From assembly GCA_030682655.1 (NCBI GenBank), contig JAUXNU010000151.1:22196-86195 (forward strand): a DNA stretch of 64,000 nt, given 5' to 3'. The translations under genes were made by a program, and so were the position numbers. This DNA comes from Actinomycetota bacterium (GTDB taxonomy: Bacteria > Actinomycetota > Coriobacteriia > Anaerosomatales > JAUXNU01). The notes under the pieces were generated by a model. That model did no database searches, was not told the origin of the DNA, and saw nothing but the letters and a program-made list of their open reading frames with translations. Numbering within the stretch: position 1 is the first letter of the stretch; every line of letters begins with the position of its first letter. Of the stretch, positions 11,808 through 43,223 are shown piece by piece.

Positions 11808-12461
11808 TGGTGGAGGCGCGGAGACCCGCTCCCCGACCTTTCGGTCGGACGTGGACTATTCCTTCTACCTGGAATGTCAGACCCCTCTGCTACCTTGATG
11901 GCATCAGTCGGGGTCTCCCGGGCAGGAGGGCGTTTGTGGAAGAACTCGAACACGACTTCTTCCACCCTAGTACACCGTGACCTCGCGGCCGTAGGTGCCT
12001 ATGAGTCTCTAGCCCGCTTACGCCTTTCGACTTCACGGGACGGCGTTGCCATAGCCTTGTCGGCCTTAGGTTTCACCGTTTGAGCCCTCTTTTCACCCGA
12101 CTGTTACCAGCCGGGGCGACCCTATTTGATCGAACTCCGGTCCACGACACACCCCTGGGAAGCATCTCCAGGCTCAGTCACCTGTTGGCATTCGGTCGAG
12201 CCGACGATCGGTGACCCACGTGGCTCTTCCTAGGTGATGAGGTTTCCCTCGCGGCCTATCACCGTCGGCCGTCCGGTAGTCCCCTGAATGACGTCGTTAC
12301 CGGTAGCGGGGACGCCTACCGGGCGACGTCGCTGCGCTATTTAGGCAGCGAGTGCATAATTATTGTCGACGCTTGAAGGCGTCTTGCCCCTGTTTAACGA
12401 GGTAAGGCGACCTCGGCCTGCTTCTTCCCTCAGACGTATCGTGTCGAAACCAGTCGCCCCC
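11808..12461 (-). ncRNA. ssrA: tmRNA, split by an intron (exon 1 12461-12129, exon 2 11824-11808; about 350 nt spliced)
   Basis: 5' GGGGGCG pairs with 3' CGCCUCC-A-CCA including G3:U70; tag (A)VDNNYALAA* at about 12372-12343; spliced T-arm CGGAG-UUCGAUU-CUCCG; lies directly downstream of smpB. Confidence 0.97.
11825..12128 (-). mobile_element. Group I self-splicing intron (IA-like, 304 nt, no ORF) in the tmRNA T-loop
   Basis: 5' splice after U with P1 CGAU|C/GGUCG (U:G wobble); terminal omega-G; P2 with GUAA loop; P3 GAGGGC/GCCCUC; P6 CCCG/CGGG; P7 GAGACU/AGUCC; two extra helices between P7 and P3; P9 CCGACC-GAAA-GGUCGG. Confidence 0.92.
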
Positions 12462-27588: not shown

Positions 27589-30348
<2,760 letters not shown>

Positions 30349-30401
30349 ATGTATGCGCACCTTCTATACACGGGTGATCGGCGGGGTGAGAAGCACAAGA
30401 G

Positions 30402-30707: not shown

Positions 30708-33700
30708 TCACTTTTCGACGATTTCTTCGGGTTCGGACGCGACGCATTCCATCGCAAGAACCTGCTGGTAGAGGCGCGTGGTCTCCGAGGAAGGGTCGAT
30801 GCCCAGGTCATCGACCAACCGGCTGCGACATGCGAAGTACGTGTCGATGGCTGCGCTTCGCTGCCCGGTCGCGATCTGACAACGCAGTGCCGCCTGGTAG
30901 ATATCCTCGCGCCATGAGTCGTACCGGAGTCCCCGTCGCAGAAGGCCCAGTGCCTGCGCCGGCTCTCCTCCGGCTTCGTGCAGGCGCGCTCCGGCGAGCA
31001 TCGCGTCTCCGAACTCGTGCCGATAGCGATCGCGAAACTCGCTGAACCAGTCCTCGTAGAGATCTCCGGGGAGAAGGTCTCCTCGGTATATCTCGGAGAT
31101 GCGCTCGTACGCGGCGAGGGCCTTGGTCGCATCTCCCGCCCGCCCAGCCGCAGCTGCCGCAGCGCGCAGCGCCTCGAACTCCGCAACGTCGCTTTCCACG
31201 AGCTCTCCTACGACGCGACACACGCCCCCAACGCTTTGGACGTACGGACACGGATCGTTCTTGCCAGCGCCTGGCGTCAGGGTGCCCTTCATCGCGCTCC
31301 ACACGACGTACAGGTTGTTGCGCGAGCGCGTCGCATCCATTTCCGGCCAAAGATGGTCGTGGACCTGGTCACGCGGAACGTCACGCCCCTGCTGCAGAAC
31401 TAGCATCGCGAACAGCAGTCGCGCCTTGCGCTTCTTCCACTCACGCTCGCCAACGACGCGCTCCCCGATCGACACATCGAAGCCGCCGAACATCTTCACG
31501 CTGCAGCGCGGAAGCGCATCTCGCTCCAGGAATCTGGCCAGCTCCTTCTCGCCAAGGATGCGAACCGCGAGCCGCGCCCACCGCCCGGAGTCCATGATCT
31601 CGCGCGCGGCGCGGAGTGCGCCTTCGGCATCCCTCGGCAAGACCATGCGAAGCAGATGAGCGGGCAGTAGGTCAGGGTCGATCGCGTTCGCGAACACGCC
31701 AAGGAGAGACGGGAACGCGCGGATGTACATCGCTATCTGCCAGTTCGAGCTCTCGGTGAGGATGTAGTCCTCGTGCACAAGAATGCGAGCGACGGCTTCG
31801 GTCACGCGACCCTCGCGACAGGCGACTTCCGCCAGGATCATGTCGGCGCGGAGCACGTGGTAGGCTGCATCGGCGGCAGAGGCTGTCGCTCGCTCCTGCT
31901 TTGCCAGAGTGGCTGCACCGAGCTTGTCTCCCATCGCAAGGCGGCTCGCAGCCATCTCCAGTTTCGCGAGTGACTCGTGCACCAAGAACCCGCCGGCTGA
32001 GAAGGCTTCCGCTGCAATCTCCGCATCAGAGAATGCGGCTTCCGCGTCACCCAGCGCACGGCTCATGGTTGAGCAGTACAGTTGGTTGTAGGCCGCAGCA
32101 TGAGTGTCATCAAGCTCGAGACTTCGCACAATCGACTCCCTCATGAGCGAAATCCCCTCCGACAGCTCACCCAAGGCGAAGATCGCACCCGCCCTGGCAC
32201 CGTCGAATGCACCCACATACACTTCCAACCCGTGCCCGCGACACATCTCAAGTGCTCGTTCAGCGTGTTGGACAGATCGCACGAGTCTGCCCGCTTCGCA
32301 CAGACACACGCCTAGATTGCCCGTCGCTAGAACACGCGTCGAAAGCGGTGCTGCGCGTGCCCTCGCCACCTCCGCCATGAGTCTCCCCGCTGCTGAGAAG
32401 TGACCATCAAGCAGGGCGGTCTTGTTCGCCGCATGCAGATGGACCTTGCACCTGAGACCCTCGTCCATCGTTTCGCTGGCGATTCCATCCGCCTTGGCGA
32501 GGTGTTCCGACGCCGCAAGTCCATCTCCAAGGTAGGTCGAGGCAAGAGCGGCAGTCAGATGAACCCTGGCCTCCCGACGCGGGTCAAAGGAGCCGTCCTG
32601 TGAGTTCGACAATCCCAGCAACTCAGCTAGGGTCCTTCGCGCGGCATCGAATCGTCCCATGTCCATGTCGGCACGCGCAATCACGTCCAGAGCATCAACC
32701 GTGGTCGCGACGTCACCCATCGAATCCGCAAGCGCCCTGGCGACGACAGCCTTGCTCCGCGCCTCGTCAATCATGTTGGTCTCTCTCAGAAGTGCGGCTT
32801 CCAGGACCAGTAGGGCGGGTCGCTGCACCAGCACTCCCGGTGGGAGGGCATCAAGCAGCTCACGAAGCAGTTGGTGATGTCCGGAGGAGAGCAACCGCTC
32901 ACCGAAGCTTGCCAGCCAGTCCGCCGCACGCTCGCAATCACTTGATTGCAGAACCAGTCGTCCAGCGCGCTCGGAGTCACCTCGCGCTGTCAGGATTTCT
33001 AGAGCGCTTGACCACACCCGGGCGGCTTCTGCACCCAGACGTTCGACGCACTGGTCACCGGCAAGAATCGATCGGGCGATGTCATGCACGACGAACCGAT
33101 GACCGACGGGGTCAGCTGCTGCTGTCCCCCCCACGCACACGAGGGGCAGACAGCTCCCAATGTTGCGAAGGTTCGGCAGCTCGCGTCTTCCCAGAACACA
33201 TCGCAACTCCTGCGATGAACCGTCACGCAGAAGCGCCATCGCGTACAGGCACAGCTGGGATTCGTCATCCAGTTGACTGCAGACCAAATGCATCACAAGA
33301 CTACTGAGGCCGCGGATGGAGCCGCATTCATCAAGTTCGGAAGTACCCCGGAGGATCGCATGACGGAGAACCAGGCCGAAAAGTGCGACCTGCCCTGCTG
33401 TAGCCTCCCACACCTGATGCACGAACGACGGATCGTGGGCATCAAGCCCAAGAATACCTGCGAAGGTCAACGCCTCTTCCAGACTCAACCGTAGGTCCTC
33501 AGCCTGCAAAAGCATCGCCCGGTGCAATACGCCATGTATGTCATCAGGAACTTGCCGACACGTGATTATGATCGATAACGCATGCGACGCATGCGTTGCC
33601 GCCATTTCCGGCAGGGCCAGAAGCCCCTCGGATAGCTCAATTGCCGCGAGGTCATCGATGACAACACAGAGACCGGAATCGCACCTGCGCACCGCACGTA

Positions 33701-34025
33701 CGATTCGCTCCCGATAGTCACACGCAAGCTCATTCGGATCGATATCATCCGTGCAATCCGCCAGTCCACCACTATCCAGGGCCCGTAGAAGCAATCGTAG
33801 GATGCCGGACTCGGTGACGCGCTCTCCGTGCATGTCGAGCCAAAGTGGACACCCGAACTCACCCGACGATGCAATCTGCGCCGCCAGCACACTCTTCCCA
33901 TATCCCCCCGGCGCTTCTAGGATCAGAACGCGGGGACGAGTGCACTCGATCGATCGAGCGAGCCTCCTGCGTGTGAGAATGTGGCCGAAATCAGGTACTC
34001 CTGCGTGCTTGAGCCGCTCGCGCAT
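30708..34025 (-). CDS. MalT/STAND-like ATPase-TPR transcriptional regulator with C-terminal wHTH and BTAD domains
   Basis: Walker A 'APGGYGKS'; long helical region; 'FGGFDV...KARLLFAML...DHLWPE'; BTAD 'YRGDLLPGD...WREDIYQ'. ATG 34025 with RBS GGAGG. Confidence 0.88.
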   Translation of the reverse strand: MRERLKHAGVPDFGHILTRRRLARSIECTRPRVLILEAPGGYGKSVLAAQIASSGEFGCPLWLDMHGERVTESGILRLLLRALDSGGLADCTDDIDPNELACDYRERIVRAVRRCDSGLCVVIDDLAAIELSEGLLALPEMAATHASHALSIIITCRQVPDDIHGVLHRAMLLQAEDLRLSLEEALTFAGILGLDAHDPSFVHQVWEATAGQVALFGLVLRHAILRGTSELDECGSIRGLSSLVMHLVCSQLDDESQLCLYAMALLRDGSSQELRCVLGRRELPNLRNIGSCLPLVCVGGTAAADPVGHRFVVHDIARSILAGDQCVERLGAEAARVWSSALEILTARGDSERAGRLVLQSSDCERAADWLASFGERLLSSGHHQLLRELLDALPPGVLVQRPALLVLEAALLRETNMIDEARSKAVVARALADSMGDVATTVDALDVIARADMDMGRFDAARRTLAELLGLSNSQDGSFDPRREARVHLTAALASTYLGDGLAASEHLAKADGIASETMDEGLRCKVHLHAANKTALLDGHFSAAGRLMAEVARARAAPLSTRVLATGNLGVCLCEAGRLVRSVQHAERALEMCRGHGLEVYVGAFDGARAGAIFALGELSEGISLMRESIVRSLELDDTHAAAYNQLYCSTMSRALGDAEAAFSDAEIAAEAFSAGGFLVHESLAKLEMAASRLAMGDKLGAATLAKQERATASAADAAYHVLRADMILAEVACREGRVTEAVARILVHEDYILTESSNWQIAMYIRAFPSLLGVFANAIDPDLLPAHLLRMVLPRDAEGALRAAREIMDSGRWARLAVRILGEKELARFLERDALPRCSVKMFGGFDVSIGERVVGEREWKKRKARLLFAMLVLQQGRDVPRDQVHDHLWPEMDATRSRNNLYVVWSAMKGTLTPGAGKNDPCPYVQSVGGVCRVVGELVESDVAEFEALRAAAAAAGRAGDATKALAAYERISEIYRGDLLPGDLYEDWFSEFRDRYRHEFGDAMLAGARLHEAGGEPAQALGLLRRGLRYDSWREDIYQAALRCQIATGQRSAAIDTYFACRSRLVDDLGIDPSSETTRLYQQVLAMECVASEPEEIVEK

Positions 34026-34063
34026 GTGCCCTCCACCCTGGGAGTCACCTGAGGGGTAAAGGG

Positions 34064-34072
34064 ATTCTAGCA
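34064..34072 (-). promoter_or_regulatory. Extended -10 promoter (TGCTAGAAT) of the BTAD regulator
   Basis: Identical 9-mer to the secA promoter, 39 nt upstream of the ATG. Confidence 0.55.
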
Positions 34073-34110
34073 CTTCGGCGCCCAGTCAGGTAGACAGAGG
34101 CTCCCGCGCC

Positions 34111-34659
34111 CTACGGGTGCTCGGCAACCTTCATCATGTCGTACGCCACGAGCATCGCCCCGATGGCGAGAACGCAGTCCCCGATACTCACAAGCCCACG
34201 CCTGGTACGGCCTAGCGGCACAGGAATCCGATCTCCGAGAAACGCCAGATTCGTCTTCTCGTCGGCCTCCACGTGGATAGGCGACTCGTCGAGTCTAGCC
34301 CGTGCAGTCGTAACCCGGCTGTCCACGATTCTCGAGAGGTCAACCGGCATGCCGCCGTTTGCGGACACGACGACAATGTTCAGAACCAACCCGCAGGCCG
34401 CGAGCAGCATCCAACAGCGATCGGAATTCGCAATCGCAAGCAACAGCAGGCTTGTGGTCATGAGCACCCAGAGCGCCGTGATTGCACCGTCACCAATGCC
34501 CATGAAACGCCCGAGTACTGGGACGGCGCCTTGAATGACCATCACAAGGACTACCACTCGCTCGCCCTTAAGAGTGTGCGTCGCGAGTCCACCGATGCTC
34601 CGGTACCTGACCAGTCCCGTTCCGACGCCAACAAGGATTCCCAGAAGGAGCAGTTCCAC
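34111..34659 (-). CDS. DUF5317-family membrane protein (candidate LspA-like aspartic peptidase)
   Basis: 'GLVLNIVVVSANGGMPV', 'LAFLGDRIP', 'VSIGD' motifs; several TMs. Confidence 0.85.
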   Translation of the reverse strand: MELLLLGILVGVGTGLVRYRSIGGLATHTLKGERVVVLVMVIQGAVPVLGRFMGIGDGAITALWVLMTTSLLLLAIANSDRCWMLLAACGLVLNIVVVSANGGMPVDLSRIVDSRVTTARARLDESPIHVEADEKTNLAFLGDRIPVPLGRTRRGLVSIGDCVLAIGAMLVAYDMMKVAEHP

Positions 34660-34663
34660 GAGC

Positions 34664-35842
34664 TCAGTCCAGTTCCGCAGACAGGACTCGCTCAAGTGCC
34701 CCAACGACGCGCGGGTCGTACTTCTCGGCCGAGCCTGCGCGAATCACCCCAAGCACATCCGCAGCGCGTGCCTGTGGGGCGCTGTATCCTCCAGCGAACT
34801 CATCGAAGTCGGACGCGACACGAATCACCTGGGAGAGCAGTCTGTCAACACCGGTCGACTGCATCACCTCGAAGTCAGCGTGGTGATTCGCAAGGACAGG
34901 CCCCAGGTCTGCCAGGAACTCAACACCCTCCACAATTCTGGCACCCGTCTCCCAATGGCAGTCATGCGCACCGGCGCTGTCCTGAATCTTCCCGATGTCA
35001 TGCAGCAAGGCGGCGAATCCGAGTCTCTGAAGGTGCTTCGGGCGCAGGCCTAGACGCCTGCCCATGGCAGTCGCAAGCTCCGCCACTCTCTCCGCATGAC
35101 CACTGAACTCAATCTTCTCAAACTCAGCAAGCCTGGCCAGAACGCCGACTGTCTGCGTGTACGCGGTTCGAATCCGCAGCAGCAGGGCGAACGCGTGCTT
35201 CATTACCATCATCAGAGTGACGAGCACCGCCACGCCCGCCACGTTCATGGTTGGGTAGACGATAGCGAGAACAATTCCAACCGAGACCTGCCCCAAGTAC
35301 ATTGCGCCAACTAGCCGCACGAGAGACTTGACGGACGACCAGACAGCCTCACCCTCACCGAAAGCCCAAAGTGCTGCATAGGATGCAAGATCGGCCAGAA
35401 CGTAAGCAGCGGCCAGGACTAGGGCGACTAGCATCGTAGGCACACTCGGTTCAAGTAGCCGCTGGGGAAACCCGAGTCCCTCTGCGGCGTAGCCGAAGCC
35501 CAAGACAAGGAGAGGAATCCTCGAGAAGTCTAGAAGCATCAAGCCGGATTGTCTCTCTAGGGCCATTCCCAGCAGGAATGAGAGGATTGCACCTCCGCCC
35601 GCTGCGGCGACACCAGCAGGCATGCCCAGCAGAAGAACGGAGGCTACAGCAATACCACAACCTGCCTGGAGGACACCTCCTCGCGACAAGCGAAGCGGCA
35701 GCGCGCTGACCAGTGCGTACGACAAAGCGAAGAGACCAATCTCGGGCAAGTCCGCGAGCCTGATGCCAGCCTTGGCGGCAACGGCCACGGCACCAACACC
35801 GAGAACCAGAAAGGCTGTTGCGATCAGGGCACGTCGGGTCAT
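34664..35842 (-). CDS. Membrane-bound HD-GYP protein, degenerate
   Basis: Multi-TM N-terminus; 'GHAERV', 'LLHDIGK' kept, but HHE is HHA, the GYP loop is absent and VAD is VAS. ATGA overlap with the upstream gene. Confidence 0.85.
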   Translation of the reverse strand: MTRRALIATAFLVLGVGAVAVAAKAGIRLADLPEIGLFALSYALVSALPLRLSRGGVLQAGCGIAVASVLLLGMPAGVAAAGGGAILSFLLGMALERQSGLMLLDFSRIPLLVLGFGYAAEGLGFPQRLLEPSVPTMLVALVLAAAYVLADLASYAALWAFGEGEAVWSSVKSLVRLVGAMYLGQVSVGIVLAIVYPTMNVAGVAVLVTLMMVMKHAFALLLRIRTAYTQTVGVLARLAEFEKIEFSGHAERVAELATAMGRRLGLRPKHLQRLGFAALLHDIGKIQDSAGAHDCHWETGARIVEGVEFLADLGPVLANHHADFEVMQSTGVDRLLSQVIRVASDFDEFAGGYSAPQARAADVLGVIRAGSAEKYDPRVVGALERVLSAELD

Positions 35843-37137
35843 GTGCGAGCCTCCCATCGGATATCCCCGCGAAGTACGCGCGCCAGGACATCAGCGTCGA
35901 CTCTGACCAGGAGCGCCTCGACAACAGACTGGTCGAGGGTGTCACCGGCCGCCCGGCGGACTACATCAGCTGCCTCTGAGAACGGAAGTGCCCGCCGATA
36001 GGCTCTGTCCGACGTAATGGCGTCGAACGTGTCGGCCACGGCGAGCACCTTCGCACCCTCAGGGAGCCCACTACCAACAAGTCCGAGCGGATATCCGCTA
36101 CCATCCATTCGCTCATGGTGCGCGGCGATGAGGGGAACAACCTCCGCCAGGAAGTCGATGCCTTCAAGCACCTGGGCGCCACTGAGGGGATGGAGCTTCA
36201 CCTCTCCATACTCCTCCGAAGTTAGAGCCGCTGGCTTGGTAAGCGTAGCGACGCTGACGCCGACCTTGCCGATGTCGTGCAAGAGCGCAGCGAGTTCGAT
36301 AGTCTGCACCGACTCGGGACCTAGCGAGAGCCCGTCTGCAATCTGCCTTGCATAGAAGGCGACGCGCTCTGAATGTCCGCGAGTGTACGGATCCTTCGCC
36401 TCAAGAACAGCGATGAGCGAGCGCAGTGTGTCACGGTAGGACTCCGACAAGTGCCTGTACACCTGGAAGGTCTGCCTCGAAACAGCAAAGGGAACGACCA
36501 CGAGGAGTGCTCCCGGGAGCCCAGCCAGCAGAAGCAATTGGGCCAACACAATACCCAGGAGCGCGAGAACGACGAGACTGACTGAATACGACGAGAAGCT
36601 CTGCCGCCAGACTTCACGAAACGGTACGTCCGCCGACAGCGAAATCGCGCCCGCCACGAGTAGCATGTTGGTGAGAGCCTGAACAGCAGCCGCAGCAAGA
36701 GCGGCCACGAGGATTTGGAGCGACAGCGCCGGAGTCGGCTGCAAGAGCAGTGGCGCCACCCCGAACGCACTCAGAGTCAAGCCCGCCACCACGCCCGACA
36801 GTGCAAGTTGGCTAACGTTGAAGAGCATGCGCAGTGGCGGCTTACGCGCCACGATGTCCTGAGGCGGAATGGCGGAGCAGACGCAAACTATTGCCCCCAT
36901 GAGTGGTCCGCCCAGCAACACCGCAGCGAACTCGATGGCAAAGGCCAGGGAGACCGACCCGCCAAACGGGATACGGAACGCGAAACACTCCGCCAGGAAA
37001 CTCAGTGCCCCGAGAAAGAGCGTCAGCCGCCAGTCAGGGACTGCGCCGTCGCGTGCAACAGCAGCGACCGCAACGGTTGCGACCATGGAAACCAGCACAG
37101 TGTAAGAGAGTACTCTGTTCTTCAACGGCGCACTCAT
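35839..37137 (-). CDS. Membrane-bound HD-GYP c-di-GMP phosphodiesterase
   Basis: Multi-TM N-terminus; 'EAKDPYTRGHSERV', 'LHDIGK', 'HHERMDGSGYP', 'AVADTFDAITSDRAYR'. Confidence 0.93.
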   Translation of the reverse strand: MSAPLKNRVLSYTVLVSMVATVAVAAVARDGAVPDWRLTLFLGALSFLAECFAFRIPFGGSVSLAFAIEFAAVLLGGPLMGAIVCVCSAIPPQDIVARKPPLRMLFNVSQLALSGVVAGLTLSAFGVAPLLLQPTPALSLQILVAALAAAAVQALTNMLLVAGAISLSADVPFREVWRQSFSSYSVSLVVLALLGIVLAQLLLLAGLPGALLVVVPFAVSRQTFQVYRHLSESYRDTLRSLIAVLEAKDPYTRGHSERVAFYARQIADGLSLGPESVQTIELAALLHDIGKVGVSVATLTKPAALTSEEYGEVKLHPLSGAQVLEGIDFLAEVVPLIAAHHERMDGSGYPLGLVGSGLPEGAKVLAVADTFDAITSDRAYRRALPFSEAADVVRRAAGDTLDQSVVEALLVRVDADVLARVLRGDIRWEART

Positions 37138-37151
37138 CACAGGAAGTTCGG

Positions 37152-37379
37152 TGGGCCGACGCCGTGTAAACAGGGACGAGCTACCAACGGAAAGACGCGC
37201 CGCCACCAAGAACAAGAGCGGCCAGAGAGCTGAGAATAACGATCATACGCTTCATGTTGAGAAGACCCCCTCTCGGGATTCACGGTCTTCTCCCATTCCG
37301 CTAGTGATGGAAGAACCCTGTCCGCTCCGCTCATTTCAGTGCTGACAGTGTTCAAACCGATTACCACGGCGTCGGCCCA
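37152..37379. repeat. Perfect 15-bp inverted repeat enclosing the peptide gene (arms 37152-37166 and 37365-37379)
   Basis: TGGGCCGACGCCGTG at 37152 and its exact reverse complement CACGGCGTCGGCCCA at 37365. Confidence 0.9.
37181..37255 (-). CDS. 24-aa signal-peptide-like peptide MKRMIVILSSLAALVLGGGASFRW (putative pheromone precursor)
   Basis: ATG with upstream GAGAGGGGG; TAG at 37181-37183; KR, hydrophobic core, GGGASFRW tail; lies inside the operon; absent from the ORF track. Confidence 0.85.
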   Translation of the reverse strand: MKRMIVILSSLAALVLGGGASFRW

Positions 37380-37386
37380 AACTGGG

Positions 37387-38067
37387 CTATGAGGTTGTCA
37401 AGAAGCCAAGACGCCTGTTTATTGCATCAAGCGTGGCCCGGACAATTGAGTCGTTTTCATTTTGCCGGACGAGCGCGGATCCCGCGTACGACTGCTCTCC
37501 CAATGGAGAGACAAGCGTAACGCAAGACACAGCAACATGCTCGCGTCCGAGTTGTGTGATGGTTACGTCCTCCAGCGCGAAACTGTGCGCGCCATGAATA
37601 TACTGCTCGACCGCGCTGAGGGTCGCAAGCGCCACAAGGCGCTGCCTGCCCGTCCGGCTTGCCGGACCGGCGACATCCCCGACGTAGTGATCGCCTTCGA
37701 TCTCCAGTGTCACGGACACCGTCGCGTGAACACCGGTGACGGTGGCGTTGATGGTCACGATGCGCGCGCGAGCCTCGACCCCTGCGCTCGGTTCAGGCGC
37801 GAGAGAGTCCTGACCGAGCTGCGCGATCGAGATCTTCTTGTGATCGATGGGGATGCCGAATCGCGCCATGATCGTGGATTCGATGTCGCGCACGAGTTGC
37901 TTCGGCGACTTGGTCGGAAGCGCCAGGATGTGGACTTCCTGGATATTCCCCTCAGGAGAGGCCACAACGCGCGCAGCCTTGATCTCGGCGACTTGCCCGA
38001 GAAGCTTTTCGATTTCCTCGATGGAGACGTGCGACAATGCCTGGTCCACAAGTGCTCCCTGCTTCAT
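37387..38067 (-). CDS. Conserved hypothetical protein with a LeuA-regulatory-domain-like C-terminus
   Basis: Two beta-beta-beta-alpha-like repeats ending 'VALATLSAV' and 'DSIVRATLDAINRRL'. Confidence 0.8.
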   Translation of the reverse strand: MKQGALVDQALSHVSIEEIEKLLGQVAEIKAARVVASPEGNIQEVHILALPTKSPKQLVRDIESTIMARFGIPIDHKKISIAQLGQDSLAPEPSAGVEARARIVTINATVTGVHATVSVTLEIEGDHYVGDVAGPASRTGRQRLVALATLSAVEQYIHGAHSFALEDVTITQLGREHVAVSCVTLVSPLGEQSYAGSALVRQNENDSIVRATLDAINRRLGFLTTS

Positions 38068-38133
38068 GTACTACTACTCTAGCTGTCTCCATTCAGTCTG
38101 CGCATAGCCCCGAGGGCGCATTCTCTTCGCCCC

Positions 38134-38163
38134 ACTGTATTCGGGCGACAAAGGGAAAGTCAA
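38134..38163 (-). promoter_or_regulatory. SigA-type promoter of the peptide/HD-GYP operon
   Basis: TTGACT-N18-TACAGT just downstream of the hpf terminator. Confidence 0.55.
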
Positions 38164-38210
38164 CCGAAACGACAGCCTCGCGCGGTCACATTCCTTAAGC
38201 TCACGGCACC

Positions 38211-38243
38211 AAAAAGGGCGGGACGCCGACTGGCACCCCGCCC
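38211..38243 (-). terminator. Intrinsic terminator after hpf
   Basis: GGGCGGG...CCCGCCC stem followed by TTTTT on the minus strand. Confidence 0.8.
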
Positions 38244-38259
38244 CTGACAAACGCTCCTG

Positions 38260-38814
38260 CTATCTCAGCTGAGGCTCGATCAAGCCGTAGTCCCCATCGT
38301 TGCGTCGGTACAGAACGCTGACCGTCTCCGTTTCGGCCGACGTGAACACGAAGAAATCATGGCCAAGGAGCTCCAGTTGCAGGATCGCCTCCTCGGGGGT
38401 CATGGGCTTGAGCTCGAGGGATTTCGTCTTCACGATGGCTGGCTCCTCGGCCTCCGGCTCGCCGATGTCCGGCGCGGGCACCGGCGGTATGGCGGCCTTG
38501 GGAGAGTGACGATCGGCCATCTTTCCCTTGTACTTGCGGAACTGCGTCTCAAGCTTCTCGGAGACAAGATCAATGGCGGCGTACATGTCCATTGACGCTT
38601 CCTTGGCGCGGATGACCGGCCCGCGCGTGATCCACACAGTGACCTCGGCGATCTGGTTCTTCTCGATCGAAGGGTTCTTCTCGTGGTAGATCTCAACCTC
38701 GACCGTCATCGTGTCCTGGTCGAGGATCTTGCCCAAGCGGCCGATCTTCTCCTCGGCATAGTCGTGAATCGGCTGGGTGACCGCCATATGGCGTCCCTTC
38801 ACGATCATCTTCAT
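38260..38814 (-). CDS. hpf: Long ribosome hibernation promoting factor (HPF/RaiA)
   Basis: 'DMYAAIDLVSEKLETQFRKYK'; C-terminal 'KPMTPEEAILQLELLGHDFFVF...YRRNDGDYGLI'. Confidence 0.97.
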   Translation of the reverse strand: MKMIVKGRHMAVTQPIHDYAEEKIGRLGKILDQDTMTVEVEIYHEKNPSIEKNQIAEVTVWITRGPVIRAKEASMDMYAAIDLVSEKLETQFRKYKGKMADRHSPKAAIPPVPAPDIGEPEAEEPAIVKTKSLELKPMTPEEAILQLELLGHDFFVFTSAETETVSVLYRRNDGDYGLIEPQLR

Positions 38815-38957
38815 GTGAGCCCTCCTTGGTTACCGGTCCTGACAAAGAAGATACCCATGCCCCGACGCTATGGAGCACGCGCGTTCGACAAGCGGATGCA
38901 CACGAGCGTGCGCGGGAAAGGTTAGTTGAATCCGCCGGAGATGGCCAGCACACCAGC

Positions 38958-39707
38958 TCAGATGATATGGCCGAGGAAGTCTTTGGTGCGCTCGTTCTGG
39001 GGGTTGTCGAAGACTTCGGACGGCGTGCCCTCTTCGACTATCACGCCCTCGTCCATGAATACGGCGCGGCTCGCGACGTCGCGCGCAAAGCCCATCTCGT
39101 GTGTCACGACGAGCATGGTCATTCCGGCGCGAGCAAGTTCCTTCATGACGTCGAGCACGCCGCGAACGAGCTCGGGGTCGAGCGCCGAGGTGACCTCGTC
39201 AAACAACATCACGTGTGGATCCATCGCAAGCGCCCGCGCGATTGCCACGCGCTGCTGCTGACCTCCGGAGAGCTGCGACGGGTAGTAGTCGACCCGGTCG
39301 CCCAAGTCGACCCTCTCGAGCTGCTCGATCGCGATGCGATCGGCCTCCTCCTTGGAACGGCCGAGCACCCTACGCTGCGCGAGCATGACGTTGCCCTTGG
39401 CAGTGAGGTGCGGGAACAGATTGAAGGACTGGAAGACCATGCCGATGCGCTCGCGCACCTCGTTGATGTCGGTCTTTGGGGCATTGACCTGGATGTCTTC
39501 GAGCCAGACCTCCCCGCCGGTGGGTTCTTCTAGCCGGTTCACGCATCGCAGCAACGTCGACTTCCCCGACCCTGACGGGCCAAGGATAACCACCACTTCG
39601 CCCTTGGTGACGTCCATGTCGACTCCGCGCAACACTTCGAGGTCGCCGAAGCGCTTATGCAGGTTCTTGATTCGCACCACCGGTTCGGAGTTCACCGTAC
39701 TGCTCAC
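38958..39707 (-). CDS. Polar amino acid ABC transporter ATP-binding protein
   Basis: '[13 protein letters not shown]', '[15 protein letters not shown]', '[11 protein letters not shown]'. Confidence 0.96.
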
Positions 39708-42968: not shown

Positions 42969-43223
42969 CGGTGCTTTCACCCGGCTGACCTGGTCTTTGA
43001 CCCCACACTCGCATACCGGAGCTTTCGCTTGATGCGATCTCACTAGCGGCCCTCTCGCCCGCCAGCCAGGATGGCTGGACCGGACGGTACGACTTACCCC
43101 TAAGACGCGCCATGCTCGCGCGACGGCCGAAACCGCCGGCTTACGTGGGTCCTTTCGGCCGCGTCTACCATGGACTAGGATCGCTTGCGCGACCCGCAAC
43201 CACAGACCCGAGTGAAAGCACCG
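42969..43223 (-). ncRNA. raiA-motif RNA
   Basis: Recognised conserved blocks GUGGUUG, CCACGUAAG, GAGCAUGG-GCG-CUUAG-GUAAGUC, GGCGAGAG, UAGUGAGA, GCGAGUGUGGGGUCAAAGACCAGGUCA; 16-bp closing helix; typical context downstream of comF and upstream of binding-protein and raiA genes. Confidence 0.9.

Follow-up and report, generated by a model that had tools for sequence, protein, structure and literature searches.

A candidate micropeptide gene within a conserved leader RNA ahead of membrane HD-GYP genes, between hpf and secA

Gene order and distribution of the locus

A 64,000-nucleotide stretch of contig JAUXNU010000151.1 (assembly GCA_030682655.1, positions 22,196 to 86,195 of the forward strand; hereafter the window) was analysed. 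It comes from a metagenome-assembled genome of a groundwater member of the Coriobacteriia, of the Anaerosomatales type, in which 15 genes encode GGDEF proteins and about ten encode HD-GYP proteins. The subject of this work is a block of genes located between hpf and secA on the minus strand of the window, and in particular an open reading frame of 24 codons (micro-ORF; 37181–37255; MKRMIVILSSLAALVLGGGASFRW) that precedes the gene of a membrane HD-GYP protein, an enzyme that degrades cyclic di-GMP (c-di-GMP). What is new here is that the micro-ORF, judging from the comparison of related loci, sits inside a conserved structured RNA without an Rfam family; a peptide gene placed in the RNA before a c-di-GMP-degrading enzyme, in at least five phyla, points to an undescribed form of c-di-GMP control. 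The genes of the block were scanned for known families, and the evidence is comparative throughout.

Read along the minus strand, on which all the features of the module are located, the series starts with hpf (38260–38814) and its intrinsic terminator (38209–38245), a 14-bp GC stem followed by UUUUU with a folding energy of -30.7 kcal/mol, which forms the upstream boundary of the module. A sequence scan revealed a promoter-like site, TTGACT-18-TACAGT (38134–38163), ahead of P226 (37387–38067), a LeuA-regulatory-like protein of 226 residues; at this site TTGACA-18-TAnnnT is retained in 17 of 21 related loci. The micro-ORF follows, and after it come HD-GYP1 (35839–37137), with a MASE9 domain and an intact HD-GYP domain, its membrane paralog HD-GYP2 (34664–35842), which has a degenerate site, a five-helix membrane protein of the DUF5317 family (34111–34659), and a regulator of 1121 residues (30708–34073) composed of a STAND ATPase, TPR and SARP-type parts, the latter being a winged helix-turn-helix and a BTAD domain. 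The series is closed by secA (27589–30360). An earlier description of this DNA, made from the letters alone and referred to here as the sequence-only reading, had proposed six co-oriented genes with their own promoter after the hpf terminator; the genes were found at these coordinates, together with the promoter-like site and the terminator hairpin.

The same reading had judged the block to be more AT-rich by eye. This is right but the difference is modest, 61.1% G+C versus 63.9% in the genome, and it is mainly an effect of third codon positions, where G+C reaches 65–71% in the genes of the block (30708–38067) versus 83–86% in hpf, secA and the gene of an ATP-binding cassette ATPase (27589–30360 and 38260–39707). 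Since the block is ancestral (see below), this contrast is read as codon bias, i.e., weakly expressed genes beside highly expressed neighbours.

The distribution of the locus was established by synteny. P226 is present in 34 of the 41 sampled genomes of the order, with 47–81% identity, and the full series hpf, P226, small ORF, HD-GYP1, HD-GYP2, DUF5317, regulator and secA is syntenic in all 20 relatives that were fetched. For one of the seven genomes without a P226 match (G008), a module devoid of P226 was considered and ruled out, given that the apparent absence corresponds to a contig break. DUF5317 was detected in 61 of the 68 genomes sampled from this order, and never in the remaining orders of the class. 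When species-representative genomes were scanned with a P226 profile, 80 loci were obtained, labelled as Coriobacteriia, Bacillota (Desulfosporosinus, Thermincola, Symbiobacterium, Thermosediminibacter, Thermoanaerobacterales and Syntrophomonadaceae), Armatimonadota, Atribacterota, Sumerlaeota and other Actinomycetota; these names are the record titles of metagenome-assembled genomes and may be imprecise, and the two sets of loci used in this work overlap, some genomes being present twice. In the cross-phylum loci a MASE9-HD-GYP gene comes after P226, DUF5317 was mostly found as well (with an iterated profile), and the core formed by P226, the small ORF, HD-GYP and DUF5317 is usually located between hpf and secA. 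The position given to the block by the sequence-only reading was thus correct, but not the idea that it had been inserted there: a foreign insertion is ruled out by synteny throughout the order and beyond, and the locus is best explained as an ancient signalling module that has been kept vertically. Its fixed address beside secA and the ribosome-hibernation gene hpf is suggestive of a connection of c-di-GMP with the growth state of the cell.

The 24-codon micro-ORF

A Shine-Dalgarno sequence (GAGAGGGGG, 37266–37274) is located 5–13 nt 5' of the ATG of the micro-ORF, and one is kept ahead of every micro-ORF ATG in the loci compared. The micro-ORF was found in the 20 relatives without exception, at a fixed position 132–148 nt past the stop codon of P226. 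The summed column entropy at the first, second and third codon positions is 18.2, 7.7 and 30.3, respectively (23 aligned codons), and the mean pairwise ratio of nonsynonymous to synonymous substitution rates (dN/dS) is 0.24. Across phyla, in genomes with a G+C content from about 35% to 65%, it also lies between P226 and HD-GYP, as exemplified by MSKLFKAISVLVTLVLAGGASFKW (Desulfosporosinus), MKAMVKVVMAIVTLVLAGGAGVRW (Thermincola), MKLNAALVKILLALMALVLAGGANFKFG (Thermosediminibacter) and MKLAKVILALMALVLAGGANIKWGW (Sumerlaeota). A motif search located it in 81 loci, which encode 77 distinct sequences; the peptide has 24–30 residues, with a core motif L-V-L-[AGS]-G-G-A, in which G19 and A20 are invariant, and a tail x-[FWY]-[KR]-[WIML] that is four residues long in two thirds of the cases. 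A peptide profile of 25 positions, run against six-frame translations of whole genomes, gave one strong match per genome (E from 1e-6 to 1e-11), the window genome included, and this match adjoins P226 wherever coordinates are comparable. The codon-position pattern, the dN/dS value and the conservation of amino acids across phyla of differing G+C rule out a chance ORF or a conservation due only to the RNA; on these comparative grounds, the micro-ORF is considered a real gene under purifying selection. The expectation of the sequence-only reading that small ORFs with a tail of the type G-A-x-x-[KR]-W would be conserved beside HD-GYP and DUF5317 genes elsewhere was borne out across phyla.

The peptide matched no Pfam or NCBIfam family, the best NCBIfam quorum-peptide match being NprX with E = 0.84, and eight exact peptide sequences were absent from a collection of 15 billion proteins. 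The micro-ORF has never been annotated because it has less than 30 codons and is too short for standard gene callers. Longer variant peptides with proline-rich tails, e.g., ...ITAGAPFGIVPPRP, were observed in five loci labelled as Armatimonadota (L088, L092, L094, L109 and L110), including an ORF of 43 residues with a hydrophobic stretch and PPPKPPPPP; these variants stand behind the same leader with AGCGG and a hairpin.

The peptide was also followed in relation to its neighbours. The motif-defined version occurs in 75 of the 83 loci that have an HD-GYP gene downstream of P226, and divergent hydrophobic ORFs occupy the same spot in several of the other eight (L014, L088, L092, L094 and L108). 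In three loci P226 is directly followed by secA, and HD-GYP, the peptide and the leader repeats are all missing. In two loci P226 is inverted, and the peptide and the AGCGR-containing leader are found upstream of HD-GYP on the other strand; therefore, the peptide is part of the HD-GYP operon. Of 67 loci that have the peptide and at least 5 kb of sequence downstream, 65 also contain DUF5317. A particular case is L071 (10654–11550), in which the C-terminus of HD-GYP is fused to the C-terminus of DUF5317, with the leader RNA still in place and the peptide ORF intact; this locus is a decaying remnant of the module.

The leader RNA and P226

The leader, of about 130 nt, shows a higher conservation than is found at synonymous sites in the neighbouring genes. 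The structure is closed by a long-range helix of 15 bp, whose 5' arm TGGGCCGACGCCGTG (37365–37379) lies just past the P226 stop codon and pairs perfectly with the 3' arm CACGGCGTCGGCCCA (37152–37166), which is located 14 nt past the stop codon of the micro-ORF and 14 nt before the ATG of HD-GYP1. In an alignment of 20 sequences compensatory changes were observed in 7 of 10 predicted pairs, and 96% of the alignment cells pair versus 38–51% when the partner is slid; the covariation score of this helix was reached by none of 500 shuffles. Its core, GGNCCGRC / GYCGGNCC, recurs in other phyla, and in AT-rich Bacillota a U-run is found after the equivalent 3' arm. The leader also contains tandem AGCGR repeats (GAGCGGAGCGG, 37322–37332) that are unpaired and invariant in the alignments, their number varying by lineage from 3 to 7 copies. 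A third AGCGR of the window leader is in the loop of the hairpin UUCUUCCAU-[CACUAGCGGA]-AUGGGAGAA (37288–37315). The stems of this hairpin are wholly different between phyla but the UAGCGR loop is retained, and stems of at least 7 bp around UAGCGR are present in 71% of 69 leaders versus 3% of shuffled controls. Finally, RNAalifold, pair counts and the minimum free energy (MFE) fold support a helix adjoining the Shine-Dalgarno sequence, GAGAAGACC/GGUCUUCUC (37259–37292). In the Coriobacteriia the hairpin can be extended to 10 bp with a strand of this helix; both structures are mutually exclusive, because the 5' arm of the helix is the 3' arm of the extended hairpin. The competing strands are UUCUUCC, GGGAGAAGA and GUCUUCUC. 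The complete cassette of 236 nt folds with -99.4 kcal/mol (z = -3.4), and the closing helix is part of the MFE structure.

Rfam 15 gave nothing relevant at E values up to 10 for the window leader and for locus L100, and nothing at the gathering score for seven loci from other phyla; these observations add a structured RNA motif that is new and in which covariation is clear. The sequence-only reading of the module had not included this conserved leader RNA, although it had recorded the inverted repeat separately. The window genome has one copy of the motif. An apparent second copy on contig C65 lies in a sequence that seems to be coding (PNPase-like by eye) and was taken as chance; likewise, CsrA-type GGA sites and a complementarity of AGCGR to the ORF were weighed by eye and dropped. 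In loci L019, L022–L025, L027–L029, L031 and L032 an extra strong GC-rich hairpin, in some of them with a U-run, was observed after the 3' closing arm; it lies past the stop codon of the peptide and before the start codon of HD-GYP1, and may act there as an attenuator. The window locus lacks this hairpin.

The leader peptides TnaC and Erm are the models for one explanation of this arrangement, namely that the act of translating the micro-ORF, perhaps with arrest of the nascent peptide, changes the structure of the closing helix or of the terminator-like 3' arm, and in this way sets the read-through or the translation of the HD-GYP operon. The 3' arm of the RNA begins 5–25 nt past the stop codon and in AT-rich genomes the U-run comes next; HD-GYP1 of the window has no obvious Shine-Dalgarno sequence; and 24 residues, with a conservation that peaks near the C-terminus, is a typical length for an arrest peptide. 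Nevertheless, in its conserved hydrophobic, helix-like stretch and its N-terminal K/R the peptide does not resemble known arrest peptides. G-G-A is separated from the stop codon by 4 to 9 residues, a spread that speaks against arrest at a precise position, the dN/dS value of 0.24 holds for the entire ORF, and in L071, where the intact HD-GYP has been lost, the peptide still co-occurs with DUF5317. For these reasons we regard this explanation as very doubtful, and as the least probable of those considered here.

The second element to be considered in connection with the leader is P226, whose family comprises 2088 clusters at 50% identity. No Pfam match was obtained for P226 of the window, PF08502 (LeuA_dimer) included; distant homologs score 15–19 bits with the latter profile, below the cut-off of 24.9. 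No sequence relatives of P226 were found in the PDB. P226 is a cytoplasmic protein, and its AlphaFold2 model, with a mean predicted local distance difference test score (pLDDT) of 83, shows a small N-terminal alpha/beta domain and a C-terminal domain made of two beta3-alpha units. Its best PDB neighbours in Foldseek are the regulatory domain of Mycobacterium tuberculosis LeuA (3hps_B and 1sr9_B; E = 6.2e-6, probability 1.00), so that the LeuA-regulatory-like character that had been assigned from the sequence alone holds at the level of the fold. P226 shares with the allosteric domain of LeuA, the alpha-isopropylmalate synthase, the twofold beta3-alpha fold of its C-terminal half; it differs in the lack of a catalytic domain, in its sub-threshold Pfam scores and in the extra N-terminal alpha/beta domain. 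After LeuA, the Foldseek list consists mostly of proteins with tandem double-stranded RNA-binding domains (dsRBDs) bound to RNA (DCL3, MLE, Loqs and TRBP; probability 0.9–0.99), and residues 138–220 of the model follow the order alpha-beta3-alpha. These features suggest, as a possibility, that the structured RNA next to its gene is bound by P226. A partial second P226 (66% identity) was observed at positions 923–1525 of contig C193, of 1.5 kb; the contamination of the bin is 4.6%, and the contig of this apparent paralog probably entered the bin as contamination from a related organism.

The arrangement recalls HutP and TRAP, in which the gene of a ligand-binding-type protein is likewise followed by a leader with tandem repeats (UAG for HutP, GAG/UAG for TRAP) and a terminator or sequestering structure. 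In the present case the protein has a LeuA-regulatory-like fold with a dsRBD-like order and is acidic, the repeat is AGCGR, and the binding is putative. Alternatively, the leader could sense a metabolite (e.g., a nucleotide messenger or an amino acid) without a protein, P226 being functionally unrelated. Such a riboswitch would agree with the invariant unpaired nucleotides beside covarying helices, with the alternative pairing at the Shine-Dalgarno region and with an acidic P226 that can persist without the RNA. On the other hand, the number and spacing of the AGCGR repeats vary, as is more usual for the sites of oligomeric proteins than for a ligand pocket of fixed form, a single occurrence of the motif per genome does not suggest a regulon-wide riboswitch, and no Rfam model was matched. 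We consider a riboswitch quite unlikely.

Membrane partners and the proposed role of the peptide

HD-GYP1 matches HD_5 with 126.9 bits (cut-off 27.2) and MASE9 (PF20972) with 30.3 bits (gathering score 24.3; residues 55–203). HDIGK and HHERMDGSGYP are present, i.e., the full set of motifs, and the protein is motif-intact in nearly all the loci. The same architecture, MASE9 plus HD-GYP with a full catalytic motif set, is found in TM1467 of Thermotoga maritima and HdgA of Streptomyces venezuelae. HD-GYP2 matches HD_5 with 41.7 bits, only at positions 2–55 of the 170 of the profile; HDIGK is retained in it, whereas HHExxDGxGYP is replaced by HHADFE. Its start codon overlaps the stop codon of HD-GYP1 as ATGA (35839–35842). 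The second copy is degenerate throughout the order of Coriobacteriia and intact in Thermincola-like loci, and the pair of an intact and a degenerate HD-GYP, described by the sequence-only reading for the window, turned out to be a feature of the whole clade. Inactive forms of this kind are known from HnoD of Shewanella oneidensis and the RpfG-type proteins of Xanthomonas campestris, in which the fold is kept, HHE and GYP are lost, and the protein acts through protein-protein contacts. HD-GYP2 differs from them in being a membrane paralog coupled to the active copy, instead of a response regulator with a REC domain; the translational coupling to the active copy suggests a heteromer.

The DUF5317 protein matches PF17248 with 68.9 bits (cut-off 25). 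Its AlphaFold2 model (pLDDT 93.9) consists of five transmembrane helices and a small beta element, and the invariant residues are N94, N101, M-P-V, D143, S158 and G-D161. Two invariant aspartates 18 residues apart resemble intramembrane aspartyl peptidases, at the level of the motif only. In a Foldseek search against the PDB the best match had E = 4.7, and none of the 22 matches listed is a peptidase; PDB sequences searched with a profile gave nothing relevant either. The assignment of DUF5317 as the peptidase of the system, made from the sequence alone, thus found no backing in spite of a model of high confidence, and LspA or another known peptidase was discarded for lack of support from fold or sequence. 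DUF5317 and PF17248 are mentioned in no paper of the searchable literature, and among the matches listed none links HD-GYP to small proteins. DUF5317 was also observed in two control genomes, those of T. maritima, which has the founding MASE9-HD-GYP (TM1467) as well, and Thermus thermophilus.

The regulator had been called MalT/BTAD, and both parts were recovered: BTAD with 78.2 bits (cut-off 22.1; residues 962–1106), and a MalT-like N-terminus with the Walker A sequence APGGYGKS. The likeness to MalT (NF003420; 53 bits, cut-off 537) is limited to the STAND ATPase part, and the roughly 90 residues before BTAD look by eye like a SARP-type winged helix, with no profile match. This protein is found only in the loci from Coriobacteriia, where it is restricted to one order, and is absent from all 56 loci outside the lineage (L057–L112). 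Being lineage-specific, it cannot be the general receptor of the peptide; its TPR sensor had been proposed, from the sequence alone, as one possible site of sensing. A receptor gene conserved beside the peptide gene wherever the peptide occurs, as is the rule for RRNPP systems, was not found.

The peptide itself shows an N-terminal K/R, a hydrophobic run of 14–19 residues, a small-residue face A-G-G-A and an aromatic-basic tail; for its best 19-mer the Hessa delta G sums to about +0.7 kcal/mol. A layout of n, h and c regions as in a Sec-type signal can be recognized, followed by no passenger but only by 4–6 residues with the conserved K/R. Signals can come from such short precursors, as in SHP, Phr and the enterococcal pheromones. 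Accordingly, the micro-ORF might encode a signal peptide without passenger that is exported and cut near A-G-G-A by DUF5317 or signal peptidase, the tail or another fragment being sensed by MASE9 and, in the Coriobacteriia, also by the TPR regulator. If so, the locus would couple cell-cell or autocrine peptide signalling to c-di-GMP turnover. The n-h-c layout, the small residues at -3 and -1 (G-G-A), an h-region of just 14–16 residues in the versions from Bacillota, and the tails of congeners, which vary behind a fixed leader part, are consistent with this explanation, as is DUF5317, which accompanies the peptide almost everywhere and has invariant Asn, Asp and Ser near the membrane surface. 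The resemblance to SHP/Rgg, Phr/Rap and the enterococcal systems extends to a precursor of 20–45 residues with a basic N-terminus, a hydrophobic stretch, a Gly-rich segment near the C-terminus and a variable C-terminal part; however, the conserved core contains no exporter, no Eep/PptAB, no Opp system and no RRNPP-type receptor, and the partners are HD-GYP and DUF5317. The model of DUF5317 has neither a peptidase or other fold match nor a sequence relative in the PDB, and the TPR-SARP regulator is confined to one order. The conserved K/R lies at +4 past the putative cleavage site, a position at which a basic residue disfavours Sec export. Moreover, the core L-V-L-A-G-G-A shows a conservation far beyond the needs of a Sec h-region, and a translational gate formed by a structured leader would speak for an input from inside the cell. 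On balance a secreted cue is unlikely, though less so than the two explanations that centre on the leader.

The interpretation that we favour, although tentatively and at rather less than an even chance, is that a membrane micropeptide whose synthesis is gated by the leader RNA partners a MASE9-HD-GYP/DUF5317 complex. According to this proposal, the core of the module would be the membrane c-di-GMP phosphodiesterase MASE9-HD-GYP, DUF5317 and the translated micropeptide. The peptide would insert in the membrane and stay there, partnering the MASE9 domains, DUF5317 or both, either as a subunit or as a ligand within the membrane, and would set the activity of the phosphodiesterase. Its dosage would be set at translation by the leader, in which the UAGCGR-loop hairpin and the Shine-Dalgarno-adjacent helix would compete for one strand as a translation switch. 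The AGCGR repeats would be the likely site for a trans factor, and the best candidate for this factor is P226, whose fold is of a ligand-binding type; alternatively, a metabolite may act on the leader. The degenerate HD-GYP2 and the STAND-SARP regulator would be later additions of the Coriobacteriia, the former as a pseudo-enzyme partner and the latter as a transcriptional output or input. The study of MASE9-HD-GYP proteins (bioRxiv 10.1101/2021.11.05.467447) proposes that MASE9 binds a ligand within the membrane, which makes a membrane peptide a natural candidate for this ligand; no micro-ORF, DUF5317, P226 partner or leader RNA is described in it.

Several observations weigh against a peptide that stays in the membrane under the control of P226. 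The short hydrophobic run of 14–19 residues fits the h-region of a signal peptide as well as a weak transmembrane helix, and in Desulfosporosinus the leader part of the peptide is nearly invariant and the 4-residue tail is variable, a pattern that is also expected of a diversifying secreted cue. Two actinobacterial loci with a divergently oriented P226 (L104, 9350–10000, and L107, 8550–10000, both on the minus strand), in which DUF5317 was not detected, keep AGCGGAGCGG and the hairpin, but the small ORFs found in the same place, MKKIVSVFEHAMESIAKGAPTLTWR and MSKLVSLVERAFTAPVGIWR, are amphipathic and non-hydrophobic. P226 is acidic (isoelectric point of about 5.9), and its link to the RNA is only positional because it persists alone in three loci. 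As for transcripts, only groundwater DNA runs carry the window and no RNA run with the locus was found; there were no usable RNA runs for the Desulfosporosinus and Symbiobacterium relatives.

The closest functional parallels of the favoured interpretation are MgrB and SafA, which act on PhoQ, and MzrA, which acts on EnvZ. They have in common with the micro-ORF a very short hydrophobic product, for which an intramembrane action on the sensor domain of a signalling enzyme is proposed, and which is encoded beside the signalling system or controlled by it, as the micro-ORF lies beside HD-GYP. There is no relation in sequence, and the proposed target is here a MASE9-HD-GYP phosphodiesterase and not a histidine kinase; in addition, the present peptide has 24 residues, occurs across phyla and is predicted to be gated by a structured RNA. 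Searches of the accessible literature and of Pfam, NCBIfam and Rfam 15 yielded neither an entry nor a paper for the peptide, the RNA motif or this association of genes.

Membrane HD-GYP phosphodiesterases are common, and we know of no signal assigned to their membrane domains. The locus offers a concrete candidate for the input of MASE9, a linked micropeptide found from Coriobacteriia to Bacillota, Armatimonadota, Atribacterota and Sumerlaeota, and it gives a genomic context and partners to DUF5317 and to the P226 family (about 2,000 clusters). If the peptide indeed controls the enzyme, it would represent a new class of input into second-messenger signalling. A bolder and unlikely version combines all the elements: a ligand-sensing switch formed by the AGCGR leader and P226 would dose the 24-residue peptide, and this peptide, either intact or cut at A-G-G-A by DUF5317, would be the MASE9 ligand, acting inside the membrane or from outside the cell, that switches HD-GYP, with DUF5317 as the founding member of a new family of intramembrane enzymes. 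This would amount to a three-layer device without a described counterpart and to the first peptide-controlled c-di-GMP pathway, ancient across the Terrabacteria.

Two further RNAs were recognized in the window. A raiA RNA (RF03072, 159.8 bits) is located at 42976–43216 on the minus strand, ahead of an amino-acid ABC operon, which in turn comes before hpf, and a raiA RNA is also found upstream of hpf in a locus from Atribacteria (L102). The gene of the transfer-messenger RNA (RF00023, 93.5 bits) lies at 12111–12454, also on the minus strand.

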